6,145 nucleotides of DNA from a virus (Duplodnaviria > Heunggongvirae > Uroviricota > Caudoviricetes). Every line of letters starts with the position of its first letter. Position 1 is the first letter of the stretch. Where the stretch lies: positions 1 to 6,145 of IMG/VR virus record IMGVR_UViG_2703718819_000022, one strand, 5' to 3'. This document shows, piece after piece, positions 1 through 6,145 of the stretch. A program made the position numbers and the translations under genes. The notes under the pieces are model-generated. The model was not told the DNA's origin and did not search any database. It worked only from the letters and a program-made list of their open reading frames with translations.

Positions 1-405
1 ATGGATCAGGTCGTTGTTTTTCAAAAGATGTTTGAGCAAGTGAGAAAAGAGCAAAACTTCTCCTGGTTTTATTCAGAATTAAAACATCACCGTATTGCAC
101 ATTACATTTATTATCTGGCTACGGATAACATCAGAATTATTACTCACGATGACACGGTTTTGTTATTAAGAGGAACCAGGAACCTGTTAAAAGTTAGTAC
201 GACCAAGAACCCTGCTAAAATAAAAGAGGCCGCATTGCTTCATATTTGCGGAAAATCTACATTTCGGGAATACTGTTCAACACTAGCAGGCGCGGGCGTT
301 TTCCGGTGGGTTACTGATGTTAATCATAACAAACGCAGTTACTACGCCATTGATAATACGCTTTTATATATTGAAGATGTAGAAAATAATAAACCATTAA
401 TCTAG
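1..405 (+). CDS. hypothetical protein (134 aa), AT-rich; possible accessory/cargo gene; may be 5-prime truncated at the window edge
   Basis: ORF starts with ATG at base 1 and ends at TAG 403-405. Composition is visibly AT-rich compared with the rest of the window. No family recognised from the translation. Confidence 0.45.
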   Translation: MDQVVVFQKMFEQVRKEQNFSWFYSELKHHRIAHYIYYLATDNIRIITHDDTVLLLRGTRNLLKVSTTKNPAKIKEAALLHICGKSTFREYCSTLAGAGVFRWVTDVNHNKRSYYAIDNTLLYIEDVENNKPLI

Positions 406-639
406 CTAAAGTTGGATGCTTAAGAAATGCTGTTATATATAACTAATTTCACTTAACGCATTGATTTAATTAAATAATTTGCACTACAAAAAATGCCATA
501 AATCGCAAAATGACTACACCAGTGACTACACCGTTCGGTGCACTGTATGAAACAACGTGGAACAAATAGACACAAGAAATATACAGGCGGGTCATCTTTC
601 CAGGGGGAAGCGCGCTAATTCATGAGGGGCGTTAATGTC

Positions 640-1020
640 GATATGGGGATCCCCACCTACCGGAATTTTTTTCCGGTTAACTGTTAATCAGGCTGGTGGG
701 TTTTACATACCCTTGATCACCGTAATGATGATCCAGATCTGCACCTTTCCACCAATGGTGGAAAAGCCCACAGCAGGCCGCCCAGCCTCCACCAATGGGG
801 TAAAAGCATCAACCGTAACGAAAGTCGTTATGGTTGCCACCGATACCCCAAATTTGGGTATCACGAGTAAGCCCCAAAATCTGGGTGTTACTCTTACTAC
901 CCAAACTACGGGTAGTTTCCGTAGTTTCATGGTCGAGTTGCAGATCTGCAACTCCCCCATTAACCACAGGCGAATTTCCGCCTTCGGTCATTCCTTAATC
1001 ATCTGCGTAATCATAATGAT
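640..1020. repeat. dense array of short dyad-symmetric sequences (palindromes/hairpins), function unknown
   Basis: Seen directly: GGGGATCCCC 645-654; CCGGAA-T5-TTCCGG 660-676; CCACCA-A-TGGTGG 749-761 with degenerate copy near 787-799; AACGA-AAG-TCGTT 817-829; CCCAAATTTGGG 847-858 with degenerate copy near 872-886; AAACTACGG-N7-CCGTAGTTT 903-927; perfect 20-bp palindrome GAGTTGCAGATCTGCAACTC 935-954; AATCAT-A-ATGATT 1009-1021. Confidence 0.6.
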
Positions 1021-1023
1021 TAT

Positions 1024-1115
1024 TCAGCAAGCGCAATTTTGCGCTTTGCTTAAAGTTCAGCGAGTTACCGCGCCGACTTCCTCAAATTGAGGTTTCCGAA
1101 AATATCAACGGGTTA
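1024..1115. repeat. repeat block A: motif Y (GCGCAATTTTGCG...TCAGCGAGTTACCGCGCC, 1031-1074) followed by motif X (GTTTCCGAAAATATCAACGGGTTA, 1092-1115)
   Basis: Direct sequence comparison with block B at 1205-1277: motif X matches at 23 of 24 positions, motif Y shares two conserved sub-blocks separated by a diverged 13-nt spacer. Order of X and Y is swapped between the two blocks. Confidence 0.7.
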
Positions 1116-1139
1116 ACGATAAACTGGCGAGTAATTAAA

Positions 1140-1156
1140 CTACGAAAATTTCGTAG
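1140..1156. repeat. perfect palindrome CTACGAAA-A-TTTCGTAG (8-bp arms, 1-nt centre) lying between the two X motifs
   Basis: Read directly from sequence; reverse complement is identical apart from the central base. Confidence 0.7.
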
Positions 1157-1204
1157 CTCTGACTATCTGAAAGATAATCGTTGTTCCGGCCTCAGCCGTT
1201 GGCT

Positions 1205-1277
1205 GTTCCCGAAAATATCAACGGGTTAGGACAGAGCGCAATTTTGCGTTATCGGGAATATCAGCAAGTTACCGCCG
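1205..1277. repeat. repeat block B: motif X (GTTCCCGAAAATATCAACGGGTTA, 1205-1228) followed by motif Y (AGCGCAATTTTGCG...TCAGCAAGTTACCGCCG, 1235-1277)
   Basis: See block A. The last few codons of the 93-aa minus-strand gene overlap the end of this block. Confidence 0.7.
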
Positions 1278-1550
1278 TAATCGCTCCGGCTTCTTCCACT
1301 GGTACGTTATTTTTGCTTTTTCCCTGTACGTCTGCACGCGGCGACGGTAGGCCAGCATTTCAAGAACGCGGATCCGTATGTCGCGCATATCCGCATCATT
1401 AAGCTGGATACCATCACGGCGCATCACCTCCGCAACAACACGCACATAATTTTCGGCTGTCACGCTGTCCGGCTGCGTGGCCTGTTCGTCAGCCTGCTGG
1501 CTGATTCCGGCAACGCGACGGATTAATCGCAGTAGTTCGGCTTCTGTCAT
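1269..1550 (-). CDS. hypothetical protein (93 aa) adjacent to cos; candidate packaging-associated or regulatory factor
   Basis: The track ORF 1269..1748 begins at a GTG. The in-frame ATG at 1550-1548 is preceded by a GGGGG Shine-Dalgarno about 4 nt upstream (GATGGGGGCACA-ATG). Translation from that ATG (MTEAELLRLIRRVAG...) looks like a helical protein. No family recognised. Confidence 0.55.
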   Translation of the reverse strand: MTEAELLRLIRRVAGISQQADEQATQPDSVTAENYVRVVAEVMRRDGIQLNDADMRDIRIRVLEMLAYRRRVQTYREKAKITYQWKKPERLRR

Positions 1551-1583
1551 TGTGCCCCCATCGTTCTGATAGTCTGGTGTCGT

Positions 1584-1654
1584 CGGGTCCTTCCTGGAAT
1601 TATGGCCCGTTACGGGGCGGCGACCTCGCGCGTTTTCACTATTTATGAAAATTT
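1584..1654 (+). other. lambda-type cos, copy 1: cosQ-like GTTACG followed by cosN GGGCGGCGACCT (1615-1626), then CGCGCGTTTTCACTATTTATGAAAATTTT
   Basis: Near-identity to the phage lambda left-end sequence as I recall it (GGGCGGCGACCTCGCGGGTTTTCGCTATTTATGAAAATTTTCCGG), including the 12-nt cohesive-end sequence. Forms an inverted repeat with 2110-2181. Confidence 0.8.
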
Positions 1655-1663
1655 TCCGGGATC

Positions 1664-1782
1664 CATGTCCGGTTTCTCTGCAAGTTAACCATATGAAAAA
1701 TATAAAAACATGCTTTCCATGAACCGGACATGCGCAAAAAACAGACACTAAAACCGGACATCGTACCAGTTAACCGGAAGTG
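1664..1782 (+). promoter_or_regulatory. cosB-like region: one CATGTCCGGTT site (1664-1674), an AT-rich spacer (about 1690-1710), then inverted sites AACCGGACATG (1722-1732), AACCGGACATC (1752-1762) and AACCGGAAGTG (1772-1782)
   Basis: Repeats read directly. Their orientation pattern and distances from cosN (about +50, +108, +138) match the R3 / I1 / R2 / R1 layout of lambda cosB as I recall it. No terminase gene follows. Confidence 0.6.
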
Positions 1783-1955
1783 TGCAAAAATCACACGCAT
1801 TGCTGCGCGTGATTAACAATTTATCGGCTTTACTGTTCTGTATAGGCTGGGTGGCGTCATGCCGTAGCCGTTCTCCGTGCCAGCATGGAATAATCCGTAG
1901 TTACAGAGCGGTAAAGTTAAAAATCACTTTCTGTTACGCCATCAAATACGCGATA

Positions 1956-2100
1956 CAACAACCATGTGTTTTTACAAAACCATTTGATATCATTGAATTT
2001 TTTCACATTAATGACATCAAAATACATCGTAAGGTTGTTGTATTTATTTTATTTTTACCTTACTTATCAATTAGATATACCAAACAATTAAACAACAACC
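1956..2100 (-). repeat. second putative terminase-binding repeat set next to cos copy 2: ACAACAACC 1956-1964, GGTTGTTGT 2033-2041, ACAACAACC 2092-2100, with an AT-rich tract between
   Basis: Short repeats read directly. Relative to cosN copy 2 they sit at about +45, +110 and +190 on the minus strand with one site inverted. The motif is short, so chance occurrence is possible. Confidence 0.3.
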
Positions 2101-2109
2101 ACCCCCTCA

Positions 2110-2181
2110 AAAAATCTCATAAATAGCGAAAAACCGCGAGGTCGCCGCCCCGTAACGGGTCCATATGCCGGAAAGGACCCG
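2110..2181 (-). other. lambda-type cos, copy 2 (inverted): cosN GGGCGGCGACCT is the reverse complement of 2139-2150, preceded on the minus strand by GTTACG
   Basis: Minus-strand reading CGGGTCCTTTCCGGCATATGGACCCGTTACGGGGCGGCGACCTCGCGGTTTTTCGCTATTTATGAGATTTTTT aligns at roughly 85 percent (by eye) with copy 1 at 1584-1654, and is even closer to the recalled lambda sequence in the CGCGG-TTTTCGCTATTTATGA part. Confidence 0.75.
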
Positions 2182-2182
2182 T

Positions 2183-2206
2183 AAAAAAAAGCCGGATTTC
2201 TCCGGC
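2183..2206 (-). terminator. intrinsic terminator ending the capsid operon
   Basis: Hairpin GCCGGA-TTTC-TCCGGC (2191-2206) followed on the minus strand by T8 (plus-strand A-run 2183-2190), starting 7 nt after the stop codon at 2213-2215. Confidence 0.8.
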
Positions 2207-2212
2207 CTTGTC

Positions 2213-2626
2213 TCAGATGGTTTTCAGTATGCGATCGATGTCGCCGTCATCGCCCTGGTTTCTGCCATCGTACGCCATGCCAGCTGATACGGCTTGCGGG
2301 CTGTGCATGTCCATAAAGTTTTCAAAGGCTGCGGTAAGCTCTGGTGCAACCTTTGGGCGCTCCTGCTCTATGGTCATGTTCAGGATTTCACGAGCATTAT
2401 CGACGCTAATACATGGCACGTTTGCCATTGCACGTAACAGCGGCTGATAGTCGTTATGTTCATGAAGCGCCATAATCGCATCAGCGCGCGGCTTGTCCTG
2501 TTCTTCCAGTTTGTTGAGTTGATATACGGCCTCGTAGGTTGATAAACCTCTGTCAGCCATTGCCCGCGCTTCTGCTTTAAATTTACTCGCCAGCGGTAGC
2601 GCCATGATGCTTTCATTCGTTGCCAT
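2213..2626 (-). CDS. hypothetical protein (137 aa), last gene of the capsid operon
   Basis: ATG at 2626-2624 preceded by AGGGGA about 5 nt upstream; 12-nt gap after the gpD-like stop; followed immediately by the terminator. No family recognised. Confidence 0.65.
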   Translation of the reverse strand: MATNESIMALPLASKFKAEARAMADRGLSTYEAVYQLNKLEEQDKPRADAIMALHEHNDYQPLLRAMANVPCISVDNAREILNMTIEQERPKVAPELTAAFENFMDMHSPQAVSAGMAYDGRNQGDDGDIDRILKTI

Positions 2627-2638
2627 CGTTTCCCCTGC

Positions 2639-2974
2639 TTATCGCGCCAGCGGCTGAACGGATACGCCAGAACCCGCAAAGGCGGCGCATTTTTTCGCGT
2701 CAGTGTCGGCGCTCTCAGGCCAGTTTACGGCGGCGATATTAAATATCCCCGTCTTGTAACACTGTGCTGATTTCTGCTTTGACGTGTCCACGGGGTACGA
2801 AGTCAGATAAACAGCCTTGCCAGATTCCTGACCATCCCACGGCTTAAACTCGCCATTGTCCGCCAGCATCAGCGGGGTAAATTCCTGAATAACGCCAGCA
2901 TCAGCGGCAAAATGTACCAGCGTCGTGGATACCTGCTGACTGCCTGCAAATAACTCAATGTATGGAGTGTCCAT
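2639..2974 (-). CDS. head decoration protein, phage lambda gpD-like (111 aa)
   Basis: By-eye alignment with recalled lambda gpD: TPLMLADNGEFKPWDG vs TPLMLDTSSRKLVAWDG, and CYKTGIFNIAAVNWPESADTDAKKCAAFAGSGVSV vs [42 protein letters not shown] Shine-Dalgarno 6 nt upstream of the ATG at 2974. Confidence 0.85.
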   Translation of the reverse strand: MDTPYIELFAGSQQVSTTLVHFAADAGVIQEFTPLMLADNGEFKPWDGQESGKAVYLTSYPVDTSKQKSAQCYKTGIFNIAAVNWPESADTDAKKCAAFAGSGVSVQPLAR

Positions 2975-2986
2975 AGAATCCCCCCG

Positions 2987-4042
2987 TTAACCAATTTTGA
3001 CGGTAACAAATTTGCGAATATCTGCCGGAACCGGCTGCGGTGCGCTGTGCGTCTGCACGTACTCAATCGCCGGATCGCCGTCCTCAATCCAGTTTTTCGG
3101 GTAAAACATGTTTTGCGTTGCGCCCGTTCTTACCGCTTCCTGTTCCATAATCGCACCATAGGCCACCAGCCCTTTATTGTTGGTGTTGCCCAGGACCAGC
3201 AAATCAGGCTCAAGGAAATATTTTTCTGTGCCGTCGCTGTCAGTGTATTTGCCGGAATAGACGATAAGGGCCAGATCACCAAGATAGCCCTTAAAGCTCA
3301 CCACTTCGCCCAGGTTTTTACATGCCAGCTCTGCGGCGGATTCTGAACCACGGGAAAGATCGTACAGCTCACGGAATTTTTTAAAGCTGCGTAACATGCG
3401 CCATACATCAACGCCCATAATCATGACGTTGGCGGGGCAACCTGCCTGATCTGCGTATAGCTCAATGTCATAGATTGGATCGTGTATGTCTTTATCCTGC
3501 TCGGACCATTTTTTACCGTCGGCCTGCTCTATGATGTTTTTTTCCGGTATCTTCCAGTCGATTTCATAGCGCTCTATGCCTTCGCCCTCAATGATGTTTT
3601 TTCCGGTCGTTACCGCATTTACCGCCAGCCATTCCACGCGCGCTTTAATGGCGTTTATCTGGCGGCGCATGTTGCCAGTAATCAGGCGCATACGGCGGTA
3701 GGTAGGGTCGTTAAGCTGTGCCGGATCTTCTCCAGCCATGCGCATTATTGTTTTTAATGGATCGATTTCGTGTTTTGGCTTCATGTAGCCAGGGCGAATA
3801 ATGCTGGTTTCGTACCCTTTATCGCGCTGAACCAGGCTACCAACCATAGGCGAACAAAACGCCGACATAGTGACTTCTTCAATATCCAGGTTATCTAACA
3901 TGATGTCCTGTGTGTTGAATGTCGCCACGTTCGGGAAAAACAGCGCGGTAAACAGCGGACTGAATTTAAATTCCGCAATATCCTCGCGATTCAGGTACGC
4001 AAAAAGCTGGTTAGTGTTAAGTGCTATTGCTTTTACTGTCAT
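2987..4042 (-). CDS. major capsid protein, phage lambda gpE-like (351 aa)
   Basis: Full-length by-eye alignment with recalled lambda gpE (341 aa): EFKFSPLF / KFKFDPLF; PGYMKPKHEIDP / PGYVKPKHEVNP; EDPAQLNDPTYRRMRLI / EDPQNLADPAYRRRRII; LRSFKKFRELYDLSRGSESAAELACKNLGEVVSFKGYLGDLALIVYSGKY / FRSFKAVKEKLDTRRGSNSELETAVKDLGKAVSYKGMYGDVAIVVYSGQY; YPKNWIEDGDPAIEY..SAP / YPKNWVTTGDPAREF..SAP. GGGGGTGA Shine-Dalgarno; start overlaps the upstream stop as TAATG. Confidence 0.92.
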   Translation of the reverse strand: MTVKAIALNTNQLFAYLNREDIAEFKFSPLFTALFFPNVATFNTQDIMLDNLDIEEVTMSAFCSPMVGSLVQRDKGYETSIIRPGYMKPKHEIDPLKTIMRMAGEDPAQLNDPTYRRMRLITGNMRRQINAIKARVEWLAVNAVTTGKNIIEGEGIERYEIDWKIPEKNIIEQADGKKWSEQDKDIHDPIYDIELYADQAGCPANVMIMGVDVWRMLRSFKKFRELYDLSRGSESAAELACKNLGEVVSFKGYLGDLALIVYSGKYTDSDGTEKYFLEPDLLVLGNTNNKGLVAYGAIMEQEAVRTGATQNMFYPKNWIEDGDPAIEYVQTHSAPQPVPADIRKFVTVKIG

Positions 4043-4248
4043 TATTCACCCCCGTGAACCTGATTCATACCCAGCGCCGCGCGTAAATAGGCGCGTACCT
4101 GCCAGCCTGTTGACGGCTCAACCATCGCCAGCGGATCAAGTCCTGCCGCAATGCCTGCTTTTACGTTCTGCTGGTGGCGTTCCTTGAGCGCCTTCACGAT
4201 GTCGGGGCTTATGTACACCGAAACACCGCCTTTTTTCTCTTCAGCCAT
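4042..4248 (-). CDS. hypothetical protein (68 aa), first gene of the capsid operon, translationally coupled to the capsid gene
   Basis: ATG at 4248-4246 with AAGAGGA Shine-Dalgarno about 10 nt upstream; stop TAA overlaps the gpE-like ATG (TAATG). No family recognised. Confidence 0.6.
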   Translation of the reverse strand: MAEEKKGGVSVYISPDIVKALKERHQQNVKAGIAAGLDPLAMVEPSTGWQVRAYLRAALGMNQVHGGE

Positions 4249-4283
4249 AGTAAGAAATTCCTCTTTGACTTAAAAAATCATAA

Positions 4284-4299
4284 CTGGATGTTCATCCAG
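4284..4299. promoter_or_regulatory. operator-like dyad CTGGATG-TT-CATCCAG overlapping the predicted transcription start of the capsid operon
   Basis: Perfect 7-bp inverted arms with 2-bp spacer, read directly. Geometry is CTG-N10-CAG, the LexA-box geometry, but the interior is not the AT-rich consensus. Confidence 0.45.
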
Positions 4300-4304
4300 A
4301 TCTG

Positions 4305-4332
4305 ATTATAATCATGATTGCATTTTATGCAA
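4305..4332 (-). promoter_or_regulatory. sigma70 promoter for the capsid operon: -35 TTGCAT (4332-4327), 16-bp spacer, -10 TATAAT (4310-4305)
   Basis: Near-consensus hexamers read on the minus strand, about 50 nt upstream of the 68-aa ORF start. The -35 sits inside a second dyad TTGCAT-TTT-ATGCAA (4318-4332). Confidence 0.65.
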
Positions 4333-4410
4333 TGATGTTGAGTTGTGTTGCAAATTATGAAATGATGATCCCGATCATGTGTGTCAGTGCACAAAAAAAA
4401 CCTCATATGC

Positions 4411-4453
4411 AAAAGCCCGATAAGATGCCTCCTGTACTTATCGGGCTTTTTTT
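4411..4453. terminator. intrinsic terminator hairpin GCCCGATAAG-N12-CTTATCGGGC with T7 on the plus strand and T4 (then T8) on the minus strand; probably bidirectional
   Basis: 10-bp perfect stem 4415-4424 / 4437-4446, T-run 4447-4453, flanking A-runs 4411-4414 and 4393-4400. Confidence 0.7.
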
Positions 4454-4459
4454 GGGTAC

Positions 4460-4481
4460 AAAAAAGCCGGATTACTCCGGC
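4460..4481 (-). terminator. intrinsic terminator for the ssb / 90-aa transcript
   Basis: Hairpin GCCGGA-TTAC-TCCGGC (4466-4481) followed on the minus strand by T6 (plus-strand A-run 4460-4465), 7 nt after the stop at 4488-4490. Confidence 0.75.
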
Positions 4482-4487
4482 TGTTGA

Positions 4488-4760
4488 TTAGCTGTCTGGG
4501 TAATTACGCCATATTTCATCGCTTACACCATCTATACCCATTTCAGCATAAGTGCGATCTACTGCCTTTCTCAGGTCTCCGAAGTTATCCGGCGGCTCCG
4601 GTGGCTTCTGTGCCTTCCTGGAACATTCCAGCCGTCGCATCGTAACCTGATGCCGTTCCTTGTCTGTCTCCACCAGCAGCATGACTTCACCCCATCGCGC
4701 CGATGCCCTCCGGTAAAAGCCTTTTGCCTCGAGTTCCTCCGCTATGCGGTCATGTACCAT
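4488..4760 (-). CDS. hypothetical protein (90 aa) downstream of ssb
   Basis: The track ORF 4488..4880 begins at a GTG inside ssb. The in-frame ATG at 4760-4758 lies just after the ssb stop (4771-4773) and is preceded by GAGGGGG about 6 nt upstream, so the shorter product MVHDRIAEELEAKG... is preferred. Confidence 0.55.
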   Translation of the reverse strand: MVHDRIAEELEAKGFYRRASARWGEVMLLVETDKERHQVTMRRLECSRKAQKPPEPPDNFGDLRKAVDRTYAEMGIDGVSDEIWRNYPDS

Positions 4761-4770
4761 CGTCACCCCC

Positions 4771-5181
4771 TCAGAACTGAATATCATCACCGTAGGGGTC
4801 ATCGTCTCCCGCTGGTGGCTGATTACCCTGTGTGCCTGTGGTTTTGCGTCTGTTCCCGCCAGGACGTGCCGCACGGGCACTGATTACGCTGTCTGCAATA
4901 ACCTGATAACCCTGCCGCGTTTCCCCGTTCTGTCCGGTCCACTGGCTGACCTGCATCGTGCCGGATACGCTGGCAACGTCGCCTTTTTGATGTTTAGCCA
5001 GGAAGTCGGCCTGCTTACCAAATGCGATGACCGATAGCCATAACGTCGCCTGCCCATCCTGCGCCTGACTACATGGCAACGATACCGCCATACGTGCCAG
5101 CGTCATTGGTGTGCCCTTGCTGGTCTGTTTTACCTGCGGGTCGTCCACCAGCCGCCCGTAAGCTGCTATCTGTGCTGTCAT
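4771..5181 (-). CDS. ssb: single-stranded DNA-binding protein (136 aa)
   Basis: OB-fold-like core alignable by eye with E. coli SSB (WLSVIAFGKQADFLAKHQKGDVASVSGTMQVSQWTGQNGETRQGYQVIADSV vs [51 protein letters not shown]). Gly/Pro-rich linker and acidic C-terminal tip DDDPYGDDIQF (compare DFDDDIPF). GGAGAGG Shine-Dalgarno. Confidence 0.85.
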   Translation of the reverse strand: MTAQIAAYGRLVDDPQVKQTSKGTPMTLARMAVSLPCSQAQDGQATLWLSVIAFGKQADFLAKHQKGDVASVSGTMQVSQWTGQNGETRQGYQVIADSVISARAARPGGNRRKTTGTQGNQPPAGDDDPYGDDIQF

Positions 5182-5457
5182 GATTCCACCTCTCCGGTTT
5201 TAACGTTGATGGTTGTTACCTGTTCCGCTTCGGCAATCTCCCGCTCTGTCAGCGTGGCAAAATTTGCCGCCGTCGTGGTCATGAATGCGCTTATCAGTTC
5301 GGGATGTGCTTTCGCGTATCCTTCCCCCCGCGTGGCGGTCTATCGTTCTGATTGCCACCTTTAAAGCGTGCTCTGTCATGTCTAACGCGCGATATTTCGG
5401 TTCTGTTCTGTCTCTGCGTTTTTTGAGTGATTTGTTAAATCTTCCTGATGTGTGCAT
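5178..5457 (-). pseudogene. small gene immediately upstream of ssb, apparently split between two reading frames at a C6/G6 homopolymer (5324-5329)
   Basis: Frame 1 (track ORF 5200..5457, ATG at 5457) gives a plausible N-terminus (MHTSGRFNKSLKKRRDRTEPKYRALDMTEHALKVAIRTIDRH) and then low-complexity sequence. A second frame, open from 5339 to a TGA at 5178-5180, gives protein-like sequence (GEGYAKAHPELISAFMTTTAANFATLTEREIAEAEQVTTINVKTGEVES) and ends in an ATGA overlap with the ssb start codon. The two frames meet at the homopolymer. Confidence 0.4.
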
Positions 5458-5505
5458 TTTTATTTTTACCCTCGTGTTTAAAAAGTTTTAGGTTGTGGTG
5501 CACCT

Positions 5506-5729
5506 CCTCTACCTCTCTACCTAATCATCTTTCATGTCAGTAATGGCGCGGCTTTCAGATGGGTAGAGGGCTTTCGTGGCCCTCTACCCATCCTCTACCC
5601 GCCCCTCACAAACGATCTTAATCATGGTAGAAGAGGTAGAGAGGTTTTATTAGCCTTCTACCTAGCCCTCTACCCACTTATCATGTTGAATAATATGCGT
5701 TTATTTCATTCAGGTAGATGGGGTAGAGG
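5506..5729. repeat. iteron array, putative replication origin: at least 11 copies of CCTCTACC / GGTAGAGG in alternating paired orientation, separated by AT-rich spacers
   Basis: Copies read directly at 5506-5513, 5514-5521, 5562-5569 (inv), 5581-5588, 5592-5599, 5626-5633 (inv, degenerate), 5635-5644 (inv), 5654-5662 (degenerate), 5667-5674, 5713-5720 (inv, degenerate), 5722-5729 (inv). Includes a perfect 14-bp-arm inverted repeat GATGGGTAGAGGGC-N7-GCCCTCTACCCATC at 5558-5592. Lies directly after the C-terminus of the gene at 5744..6145. Confidence 0.7.
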
Positions 5730-5743
5730 GCTTTTACAAAAAA

Positions 5744-6145
5744 TTATAAAAACGCGTCACAATCATCAGTTGTAATTGCGTTGGTCTGCGTTACTCCCTT
5801 AACTCTCCGCGTAATATATTCATGTCCGTAAACTTTTGCCGCTGGCTTCATGGCCTTGCTGAACTCAGCCACGTTTAGCGGTTTGCTCCTGCCTGCGTAT
5901 GCCATAAACGCCAGATAGACGCGGTAAAGGCTGTTTCTGGTCGTGTACTTCACTGAATCGCCACCGCCGCCCATCATCAGGCCGCGTGCTTCCTCCAGAA
6001 AATTCAGGAACTGGCAAAACTCAATAACCGGATCCGTCTGTTGCTTTATTGCCAGAGCTTCATCACCGTCGCGCTGTTCCAGTAATAAAGCCCGTGCCTT
6101 TTCAGGGTCGGCAAAATTAGCCAGCAAGCGACGGATAATTACGGG
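5744..6145 (-). CDS. C-terminal fragment of a larger protein running off the right edge; putative replication initiator (primase/Rep-like) by position next to the iteron origin
   Basis: The reading frame is open to the window edge: the track start at 6127 is a TTG and the codons upstream of it (PVIIRR) continue in frame to base 6145. Stop at 5744-5746 immediately flanks the iterons. Function is inferred from synteny only. Confidence 0.5.
   Translation of the reverse strand, partial: PVIIRRLLANFADPEKARALLLEQRDGDEALAIKQQTDPVIEFCQFLNFLEEARGLMMGGGGDSVKYTTRNSLYRVYLAFMAYAGRSKPLNVAEFSKAMKPAAKVYGHEYITRRVKGVTQTNAITTDDCDAFL

Follow-up and report, generated by a model that had tools for sequence, protein, structure and literature searches.

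The stretch of DNA analysed here (the window, 6,145 nucleotides) spans positions 1 to 6,145 of the Caudoviricetes record IMGVR_UViG_2703718819_000022 in IMG/VR, and by comparison with sequenced genomes it is the right half of an Escherichia coli phage-inducible chromosomal island (PICI) of the EcCICFT073 / O-island 51 (OI-51) family. It carries an operon of four co-oriented minus-strand genes, encoding a 68-aa protein, a gpE-like capsid protein, a gpD-like decoration protein and a Nu3-like scaffold, and two inverted repeats overlap the promoter of this operon. The repeat at the start site, dyad 2, is very probably an operator of the host SOS repressor LexA, judged by its sequence. The picture as a whole, which we hold to be likely with slightly more reserve, is of a LexA box over the start of the capsid operon together with a second operator pair, such that the capsid genes of this satellite would be released by the SOS response.

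A predicted LexA box at the capsid promoter

The features of the promoter region are as follows, where dyad 1 is also designated O1 and its upstream copy O2.

4249..4281, minus strand: 5' untranslated leader, with a T-rich tract and the Shine-Dalgarno sequence GAGG (4263..4260), from the sequence
4282..4301: dyad 2, the predicted LexA (SOS) box; 20-mer ATCTGGATGAACATCCAGTT on the operon strand, with the core CTG-N10-CAG at 4284-4299
4305..4310, minus strand: -10 hexamer TATAAT, perfect consensus, read from the sequence
4313..4337: dyad 1 (O1), extended form CATCATTGCATAAAATGCAATCATG on the operon strand, with its core at 4318-4332; overlaps the -35 and the spacer, at about -39 to -15
4327..4332, minus strand: -35 hexamer TTGCAT, a 3/6 match to TTGACA and also the upstream arm of dyad 1
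4343..4367: O2, centred near -57 and 30 bp upstream of O1, which it repeats imperfectly

A preliminary description of this DNA had placed the dyad CTGGATG-TT-CATCCAG (dyad 2) at 4284-4299 and TTGCAT-TTT-ATGCAA (dyad 1) at 4318-4332, and both are present at exactly these coordinates. Dinucleotide shuffles give 0.046 perfect dyads per 100 nt when arms of 7 nt or more and loops of up to 6 nt are required; here two occur within 50 nt. When mismatches are allowed, dyad 2 extends to arms at 4276-4290/4293-4307, with 87% complementarity, and dyad 1 to arms at 4313-4323/4327-4337, with 91%.

The promoter and its operon lie on the minus strand, a correction to the earlier description, in which the promoter was called near-consensus. 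This is true of the -10, but the wording was generous for a -35 that matches at only three of six positions, below the 4/6 threshold of our promoter scan, which for this reason did not list the promoter. The two hexamers are separated by a spacer of 16 nt. Among 50 distinct E. coli relatives, five of the six -10 positions never vary and the sixth differs in one relative; Salmonella, Edwardsiella and other lineages have either TATAAT or TAAAAT here; in the -35, TTGC is invariant among relatives and the last two bases vary. The core of dyad 2 begins 5 nt past this near-invariant -10 and thus spans the start predicted about 7 nt past the -10, at approximately 4298. Relative to that start, dyad 2 would occupy about -1 to +15 and dyad 1 about -34 to -20, which fits the earlier placement of dyad 1 over the -35 and of dyad 2 over the start site.

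The preliminary description had compared dyad 2 with an SOS box on the strength of its CTG-N10-CAG spacing. The spacing is present, but taken alone it is no evidence, with three matches in the window against 0.93 expected, and because it says so little a position-specific test was built. The matrix comprised 18 known E. coli LexA boxes, each verified upstream of the expected SOS gene in K-12 MG1655, and the score was the heterology index (HI) of Berg-von Hippel/Lewis on the symmetrised count matrix, on a scale that belongs to this 18-site matrix and is not comparable with published HI numbers. The known boxes score from 2.0 to 9.5, or from 2.2 to 11.4 under leave-one-out. The LexA-type 16-bp core at 4284-4299, CTGGATGTTCATCCAG, has dyad symmetry, and dyad 2 scores 9.91, within the leave-one-out range of verified boxes; it is the only 20-mer in the window with an HI below 14. 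In 105 kb of sampled K-12 sequence, an HI of 9.91 or less was reached at 18 positions, all of them known boxes, with no false positives, and a 3-Mb order-1 Markov simulation of window composition gave a chance rate of 0.004 such sites per 6145 nt.

The earlier remark that dyad 2 lacks the AT-rich interior of an SOS box is only partly justified. The arms of dyad 2 are identical to those of the ruvAB box, CTGGAT-N4-ATCCAG, and the cho (ydjQ) box likewise has CTGGAT, with AACCAG on its other side; in all of these G replaces the consensus T at position 4. Both chromosomal boxes were verified in the K-12 sequence and have intermediate to weak scores, and removing them from the matrix barely changed the score of dyad 2. 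They differ from it in serving chromosomal repair genes rather than the capsid operon of a mobile element, and the ruvAB box also has other flanks and the central bases ATCT in place of GAAC. The weakness of dyad 2 comes mostly from a flanking base: the window copy scores worst of its family because its 20-mer begins with AT, not with AA, as in EcCICFT073, or with GA.

The comparative data form the strongest argument for LexA. Promoters were gathered upstream of homologous capsid operons in RefSeq E. coli, IMG/VR and public assemblies; a scan of a genome collection with the capsid protein alone gave no match and an alignment-based scan gave distant relatives only, and the closer relatives came from look-ups of homologous proteins and from IMG/VR. 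Fifty distinct close E. coli variants were compared, with promoters anchored by their distance from the start codon. In these, CTGGAT and CAG never change, whereas the three positions immediately before the box differ in 26, 8 and 14 variants, and the positions that vary within the box are ones that LexA tolerates. A recurrent variant, CTGGATGAACATACAG, breaks the palindrome and takes the predicted hairpin from -6.3 to -0.9 kcal/mol, while its HI improves to 5.3. Scores among the relatives run overall from 5.3 to 7.8 (5.90 in EcCICFT073, 7.84 in O157 OI-51, 7.51 in the type represented by locus L003 and 7.70 in Salmonella).

Seven sequence-distinct boxes stand at orthologous promoters in E. 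coli, Salmonella, Lelliottia and other relatives, and diverged relatives hold different, canonical SOS boxes there (CTGTATATAAATTCAG, CTGTTTTTTCATACAG and CTGGATGTTTATCCAG). In lineage L240, whose capsid protein is 68% identical, the box CACTGTATATAAATTCAGTT (HI 6.2) lies 5 nt past TATAAT as it does in the window; in the Lelliottia island L036 (57% identical), CACTGTTTTTTCATACAGTT (HI 6.0) is aligned by MAFFT onto dyad 2; and in L241, TGCTGGATGTTTATCCAGTT (HI 5.6) lies 14 nt further downstream than dyad 2. These three boxes share with dyad 2 only the bases that LexA reads, which argues against both an element-specific repressor and an RNA hairpin.

The first of these two alternatives is that dyad 2 is the operator of a repressor, encoded by the element or by its helper phage, that reads CTGGAT-N4-ATCCAG, with the likeness to a LexA box coincidental. 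A palindrome with perfect 7-bp arms and weaker symmetry out to 15 nt would suit such a protein, as would an interior less AT-rich than that of most SOS boxes, and the model of the first gene product leaves room for a small DNA-binding protein. The outer symmetry is not conserved, however, the bases that flank the core being the most variable of the region; the change that breaks the palindrome in the natural variant is one toward the LexA consensus; and the boxes of L240 (CTGTAT...TTCAG) and L036 (CTGTTT...ATACAG) retain only LexA-critical bases. The preliminary description had left the choice between LexA and an element-encoded repressor undecided. A score in the verified range and the canonical boxes of diverged satellites now strongly favour LexA, and a dedicated repressor of dyad 2 appears improbable.

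We consider it very unlikely that dyad 2 acts instead in the RNA, as a stabilising 5'-terminal stem-loop or, with the U-rich tract, as a terminator or attenuator in the leader. Our terminator scan does list 4299..4284 with TTATGATTTT as terminator-like, and a 6-bp RNA hairpin is predicted at -6.3 kcal/mol (z = -2.0). This hairpin is weak, however, and weaker still in the ATACAG variant (-0.9 kcal/mol) and in the Lelliottia box (-2.4 kcal/mol), where the LexA match is kept or improved; no compensatory changes were seen, and the T-rich leader is conserved among relatives that have neither dyad 2 nor the hairpin. The idea that the two dyads have no regulatory role, having arisen by chance or reflecting only the structure of an AT-rich promoter, can practically be dismissed, even though the left arm of dyad 1 coincides with the -35 and the CTG-N10-CAG spacing is commoner in the window than expected, given the density of perfect dyads, the chance rate of the LexA score and the conservation of both elements across genera while neighbouring bases vary.

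The second operator pair

Dyad 1 had been proposed as an operator, and its conservation across lineages bears this out; the earlier reading missed an imperfect second copy exactly 30 bp upstream. This copy, O2 (TTGCAAATTATGAAATGATG, plus strand, 4348-4367), is a direct repeat of O1 with 85% identity at a spacing of 30 nt, and was found also as a pattern match with one mismatch. The O1 core, TTGC-N5-ATGCAAT, is conserved in nine sequence-distinct lineages, including satellites of E. coli, Salmonella and Edwardsiella. Beyond TTGC the left arm varies (TTGCAT, TTGCAC, TTGCGC, TTGCTC, TTGCAA, TTGCGG and others), and the right arm is invariant although it lies within the normally unconstrained spacer. 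The O2 block, ATCATTTCATAATTTGCAAC, is almost invariant in the 50 distinct relatives, and O2 is found also in the Salmonella, Edwardsiella and L240 lineages, 30-32 bp from O1. On this comparative evidence dyad 1 and O2 are a real, conserved operator. Its position over the -35 and spacer makes a repressor more likely than an activator, and together with the other site, three helical turns further upstream, it suggests that a small oligomeric protein represses cooperatively.

Which protein reads these sites? Candidates are the 68-aa product of the first gene, the host nucleoside repressor CytR, and AlpA or a helper-phage protein. The first, tentatively, would make dyad 1 and O2 an autoregulatory operator through which a ribbon-helix-helix-like protein limits its own capsid operon. 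Every lineage in which the N-terminus of this protein is of the GGV(S/T)(V/I)YISPDIV type has the TTGC-N5-ATGCAAT operator, which is absent where the small protein is divergent (L038, L242 and L243) or its gene is absent (L004-7 and L017), and small dimeric repressors typically have their operators in pairs, spaced by three helical turns, over a promoter. An AlphaFold2 model from a small alignment (pLDDT 73) has an extended N-terminal segment and two helices, and one homologue of the protein, though only one, gives a weak match to Pfam RHH_1 (E 0.36). Searches of Pfam and NCBIfam, sequence and profile searches of the PDB, two AlphaFold2 models and Foldseek yielded no significant assignment for the protein, and Foldseek against the PDB gave no match with E below 1. 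Against this candidate, the co-occurrence of protein and operator may reflect phylogeny only; the lineages without the gene still have TTGCA-type octamer repeats at the corresponding promoter; and the phage phiA2-1, described below, has paired dyads yet, within the 7 kb analysed, encodes no homologue of it.

The lineages without the small first gene, here called type B (L004, L005, L006, L007 and L017), differ at the corresponding site, some 100-150 nt before the capsid gene. Where dyad 1 would stand, they carry two or three direct repeats that recur every 10 bp, such as ATTGCACT-ct-ATTGCACA-tg-GTTGCATT, which also read as TTGC-N6-TTGC, the pattern of a lambda CII box, and end in an exact CytR octamer. 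A second cluster of TGCAA-type octamer-like sequences occurs in L001, at 18310-18350, at the start of a 76-aa gene that precedes alpA, where ATTGCATC abuts the -10 of this gene; it is possibly served by the regulator of dyad 1.

It is rather doubtful, though conceivable, that dyad 1 and O2 are bound by CytR, which would tie the capsid operon to cytidine and nucleoside pools. The half-site of this repressor is the octamer GTTGCATT, or the pentamer TTGCA, repeated in direct or inverted orientation at variable distances (PMC3454398), and the half-sites of dyad 1, O2 and the type-B promoters match the octamer at six to eight of eight positions in comparably flexible arrangements. In the window, ATTGCATT (7/8), TATGCAAT (6/8) and GTTGCAAA (6/8) cluster at 4317-4354, and such octamer clusters appear in only 6% of shuffles. 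The inner halves of O2 and O1, TTTGCAAC-N13-ATTGCATA, resemble the class AYGTGCAAC-N10-13-GTTRCATT obtained by systematic evolution of ligands by exponential enrichment, and the type-B direct repeats, ATTGCACT-N2-ATTGCACA-N2-GTTGCATT, finish with a perfect octamer. Octamer repeats are thus present, but the canonical arrangement is not, and only the inner halves of O2 and O1 fit the N10-13 class: each dyad is everted, TTGCA-N5-TGCAA in place of TGCAA-N2-3-TTGCA. Natural CytR sites, moreover, act together with flanking CRP sites, whereas the dyads lie over the core promoter and have no conserved CRP site beside them. The motif is also weak and easily over-matched.

A paired arrangement like that of O2 and O1 was found outside the islands. 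The T1-like virulent Escherichia phage phiA2-1 (OR861626; L120, 3500-3590) has ATCATTGCAAATTCTGCAAC and CATCATTGCATTAAATGCAAT in a long stretch between genes, spaced by 30 bp (BLAST E 0.01): the same dyads at the same spacing. Over the 7 kb that were examined, its proteins have no homologues in the island. Unless coincidental, the resemblance hints at a host factor. In a search of a phage database phiA2-1 was the sole interesting match, the rest being trivial leader matches, and in a pattern scan of IMG/VR with ATCATTGCA-N5-TGCAAT, 103 of the 118 matches were chance-like, without PICI context or a second dyad, and the remainder were mostly PICIs. The TGCAA/TTGCA operators, meaning dyad 1, O2, the type-B direct repeats and the cluster in the alpA-proximal operon, could conceivably all be bound by one protein that acts as master regulator in Gram-negative PICIs, whether it comes from the host, as CytR does, or from a helper phage, a proposal that we regard with as much doubt as that of CytR itself. 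If it were true, the capsid operon would be under a two-key lock, with LexA for SOS and the second factor for the state of the helper or cell, and phiA2-1 would use or mimic that factor.

Several other binders were considered for this region and set aside. By eye, FNR has the wrong spacing for dyad 1 (TTGAT-N4-ATCAA), the IHF core match is poor, and a 13/19 Fur match over the -10 palindrome is not distinctive in AT-rich DNA. The TTGC-N6-TTGC direct repeats of lambda CII are absent in the lineage of the window, and locus L003 keeps dyad 1 without having a gene for PerC. The O157 and Salmonella relatives do not retain the only CRP-like site seen here, at 4378-4393 (8/10, by eye).

The capsid operon and its island

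The genes and terminators that define the transcription unit, with the two genes upstream, are as follows.

2188..2209, minus strand: intrinsic terminator closing the operon (terminator scan)
2213..2626, minus strand: 137-aa protein, last gene of the operon; phrog_1999, and positions 494-567 of 583 in phrog_53
2639..2974, minus strand: head decoration protein of the lambda gpD family (Pfam HDPD, E 1e-17)
2987..4042, minus strand: major capsid protein of the lambda gpE family (Pfam Phage_cap_E, E 1e-48; RefSeq relatives annotated alike)
4042..4248, minus strand: 68-aa protein, first gene of the operon; phrog_3255, function unassigned, possibly ribbon-helix-helix-like
4411..4485, minus strand: two intrinsic-terminator hairpins ending the upstream PerC/SSB unit
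4760..4491, minus strand: PerC (Pfam/PHROG)
5181..4774, minus strand: SSB (Pfam/PHROG)

The 137-aa protein resembles the C-terminal (Nu3/scaffold-like) part of head maturation proteases. The two upstream hairpins comprise a scan match at 4482..4465 and a perfect 14-nt inverted repeat at 4411-4424/4437-4450, followed by minus-strand T runs, and since they cut off transcription from the PerC/SSB unit, the capsid operon needs a promoter of its own. Gene content, promoter and flanking terminators thus agree with the earlier assignment of this promoter to a capsid operon. As in operon I of the staphylococcal pathogenicity islands (SaPIs), the capsid module has its own promoter, apart from the main regulatory operon of the island.

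Positions 1-431 of the window are the chromosomal gene ycgX, which occurs in almost all E. coli, and the rest is the right half of the PICI; every gene in the window is on the minus strand. A near-identical island in STEC2018-607 (L001) has 98% identity to the window, and islands in O157:H7 (O-island 51), JCM 5491 and AST85, with 85-91% identity, make the full layout visible: integrase, AlpA-type regulator, Icd-like protein, DUF4222 protein (RgdR), primase/helicase and iteron origin, followed by SSB, PerC in some copies, the capsid module and a lambda-type cos. This is the layout of a helper-dependent PICI, an assignment backed by gene content and by the RefSeq annotation of near-identical and related islands, and the promoter is shared with the experimentally validated EcCICFT073 (locus L239), which has the same capsid module and both dyad elements. 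The genes c1499 and c1500 of EcCICFT073 are its capsid and decoration genes (PMC6092414). A search of 5426 complete E. coli genomes finds the promoter in 591, with O157:H7 (O-island 51) and the uropathogenic CFT073 among them.

The window is accordingly a member of the EcCICFT073 / O-island 51 (CP-933C) family (Fillol-Salom et al. 2018, 2019; Flockhart et al. 2012), which it resembles in gene order, in insertion beside core genes, in being an AlpA-type island and in its lambda-type cos. It differs in having no TerS/Rpp-like gene between cos copies. Two inverted copies of a lambda-type cos, at 1613-1660 (plus strand) and 2105-2160 (minus strand), each with GGGCGGCGACCT and the cosB-like TTTATGAAAATTTT, enclose a 480-nt AT-rich segment with no convincing open reading frame. 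In relatives the inverted pair encloses a Nu1/TerS-like gene (L002 and L003) or, in EcCICFT073, a 144-aa gene that is probably the Rpp gene, and the window copy appears to have lost the gene between its cos copies.

Other features of the island lie outside the capsid module. At 5500-5740, directly downstream of the primase gene, a repeat array of GGTAGAGG / CCTCTACC, read from the sequence, is the iteron-type replication origin typical of PICIs. Between this origin and SSB, overlapping minus-strand open reading frames of 85 and 34 aa (5181-5457) match the N- and C-terminal halves of a single family, phrog_1231, which shows the gene to be frameshifted; the near-identical RefSeq copy carries a frameshift annotation here too. 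The non-coding junction between island and chromosome, at 650-1260, is dense in perfect palindromes; over the whole window, dyads with arms of 7 nt or longer number 18, where shuffles give 2.85. An Rfam search of the window matched no RNA family. The palindromes of the junction are at the following positions.

659: ACCGGAATTTTTTTCCGGT
748: TCCACCAATGGTGGA
903: AAACTACGGGTAGTTT
938: TTGCAGATCTGCAA
1008: TAATCATAATGATTA
1030: AGCGCAATTTTGCGCT
1141: TACGAAAATTTCGTA

In L024 and L025 (Edwardsiella) and in L243, the satellite-type capsid module adjoins a complete lambda-like head module (portal, S49 protease, gpD and gpE), giving two gpE/gpD pairs per contig.

Proposed control of the capsid operon

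How would these elements act together? In an undamaged cell, a LexA dimer on -1 to +15 would block initiation or promoter escape, as the established architecture of SOS genes suggests. During an SOS response, self-cleavage of LexA stimulated by RecA would free the capsid promoter, and because the same signal induces lambdoid helper prophages, the capsid proteins of the satellite would be made in step with the helper. Dyad 1 and O2, over the -35 and spacer and near -57, would form a second operator pair bound by a different regulator. The earlier reading of the operon as repressed until induction is supported by this analysis.

Several observations weigh against this proposal. The window copy of the box is the weakest of its family, its HI of 9.91 lying at the edge of the verified range. 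Four lineages of the same layout (L021-23, L024-25, L038-39/L242 and L243) have no LexA-like box, with best HI values above 16, nor does the type-B lineage (L004-7 and L017), whose best HI is at least 14.9, so that LexA control does not extend to the whole family. The left arm of O1 is explained in part by its role as the -35. In published work, moreover, mitomycin C in the absence of a helper phage induces neither EcCICFT073 nor alpA. SOS alone thus does not run the island, although the capsid promoter itself lay outside that test.

LexA-like sequences occur elsewhere in two of the islands. In L001, TACTGGTTTTCTGTACAGCT (18430-18449, HI 9.3) lies about 30 nt upstream of the TATAAT that precedes the 76-aa gene upstream of alpA, and in L002 (O157), TAGTGTATAAAAAACCAGTA (18621-18640, HI 7.7) lies about 200 nt upstream of alpA. 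Both are in the integrase-alpA regulatory region, and alpA is published as not SOS-inducible.

A precedent for LexA control of satellite capsid genes exists in the staphylococcal islands, where SaPI operon I has been shown experimentally to be under LexA (Ubeda et al. 2007, Mol Microbiol 65:41, as reported in PMC6092414). There, as in the window, a satellite of the PICI class has a module for capsid morphogenesis and packaging on a separate promoter with a host LexA box, switched on by the SOS signal that induces helper prophages; for the window this control is a prediction. The window operon differs in that it encodes gpE-, gpD- and Nu3-like capsid proteins of the satellite itself in place of cpm/terS, in the second conserved operator pair at its promoter and in having the CTG-N10-CAG box of the Gammaproteobacteria. 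The box of SaPI operon I follows the Gram-positive LexA motif. By analogy, then, the control predicted here is the enterobacterial counterpart of LexA-controlled SaPI operon I, and given this precedent the finding is not a surprising one.

Our literature search found no report of LexA control in Gram-negative PICIs, and in the literature searched the regulation of the capsid operon in the EcCICFT073 family is not described, only AlpA and a helper-derived signal. Gram-negative PICIs are widespread, and the control of their late (capsid and packaging) genes is the gap that this analysis addresses. The prediction can be tested directly in EcCICFT073, a tractable element whose box scores better (HI 5.9). 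If it is true, enterobacterial satellites would time the synthesis of their capsid proteins with the host SOS response, as staphylococcal SaPIs do, and unrelated satellite lineages would have reached the same regulatory solution with different LexA motifs.

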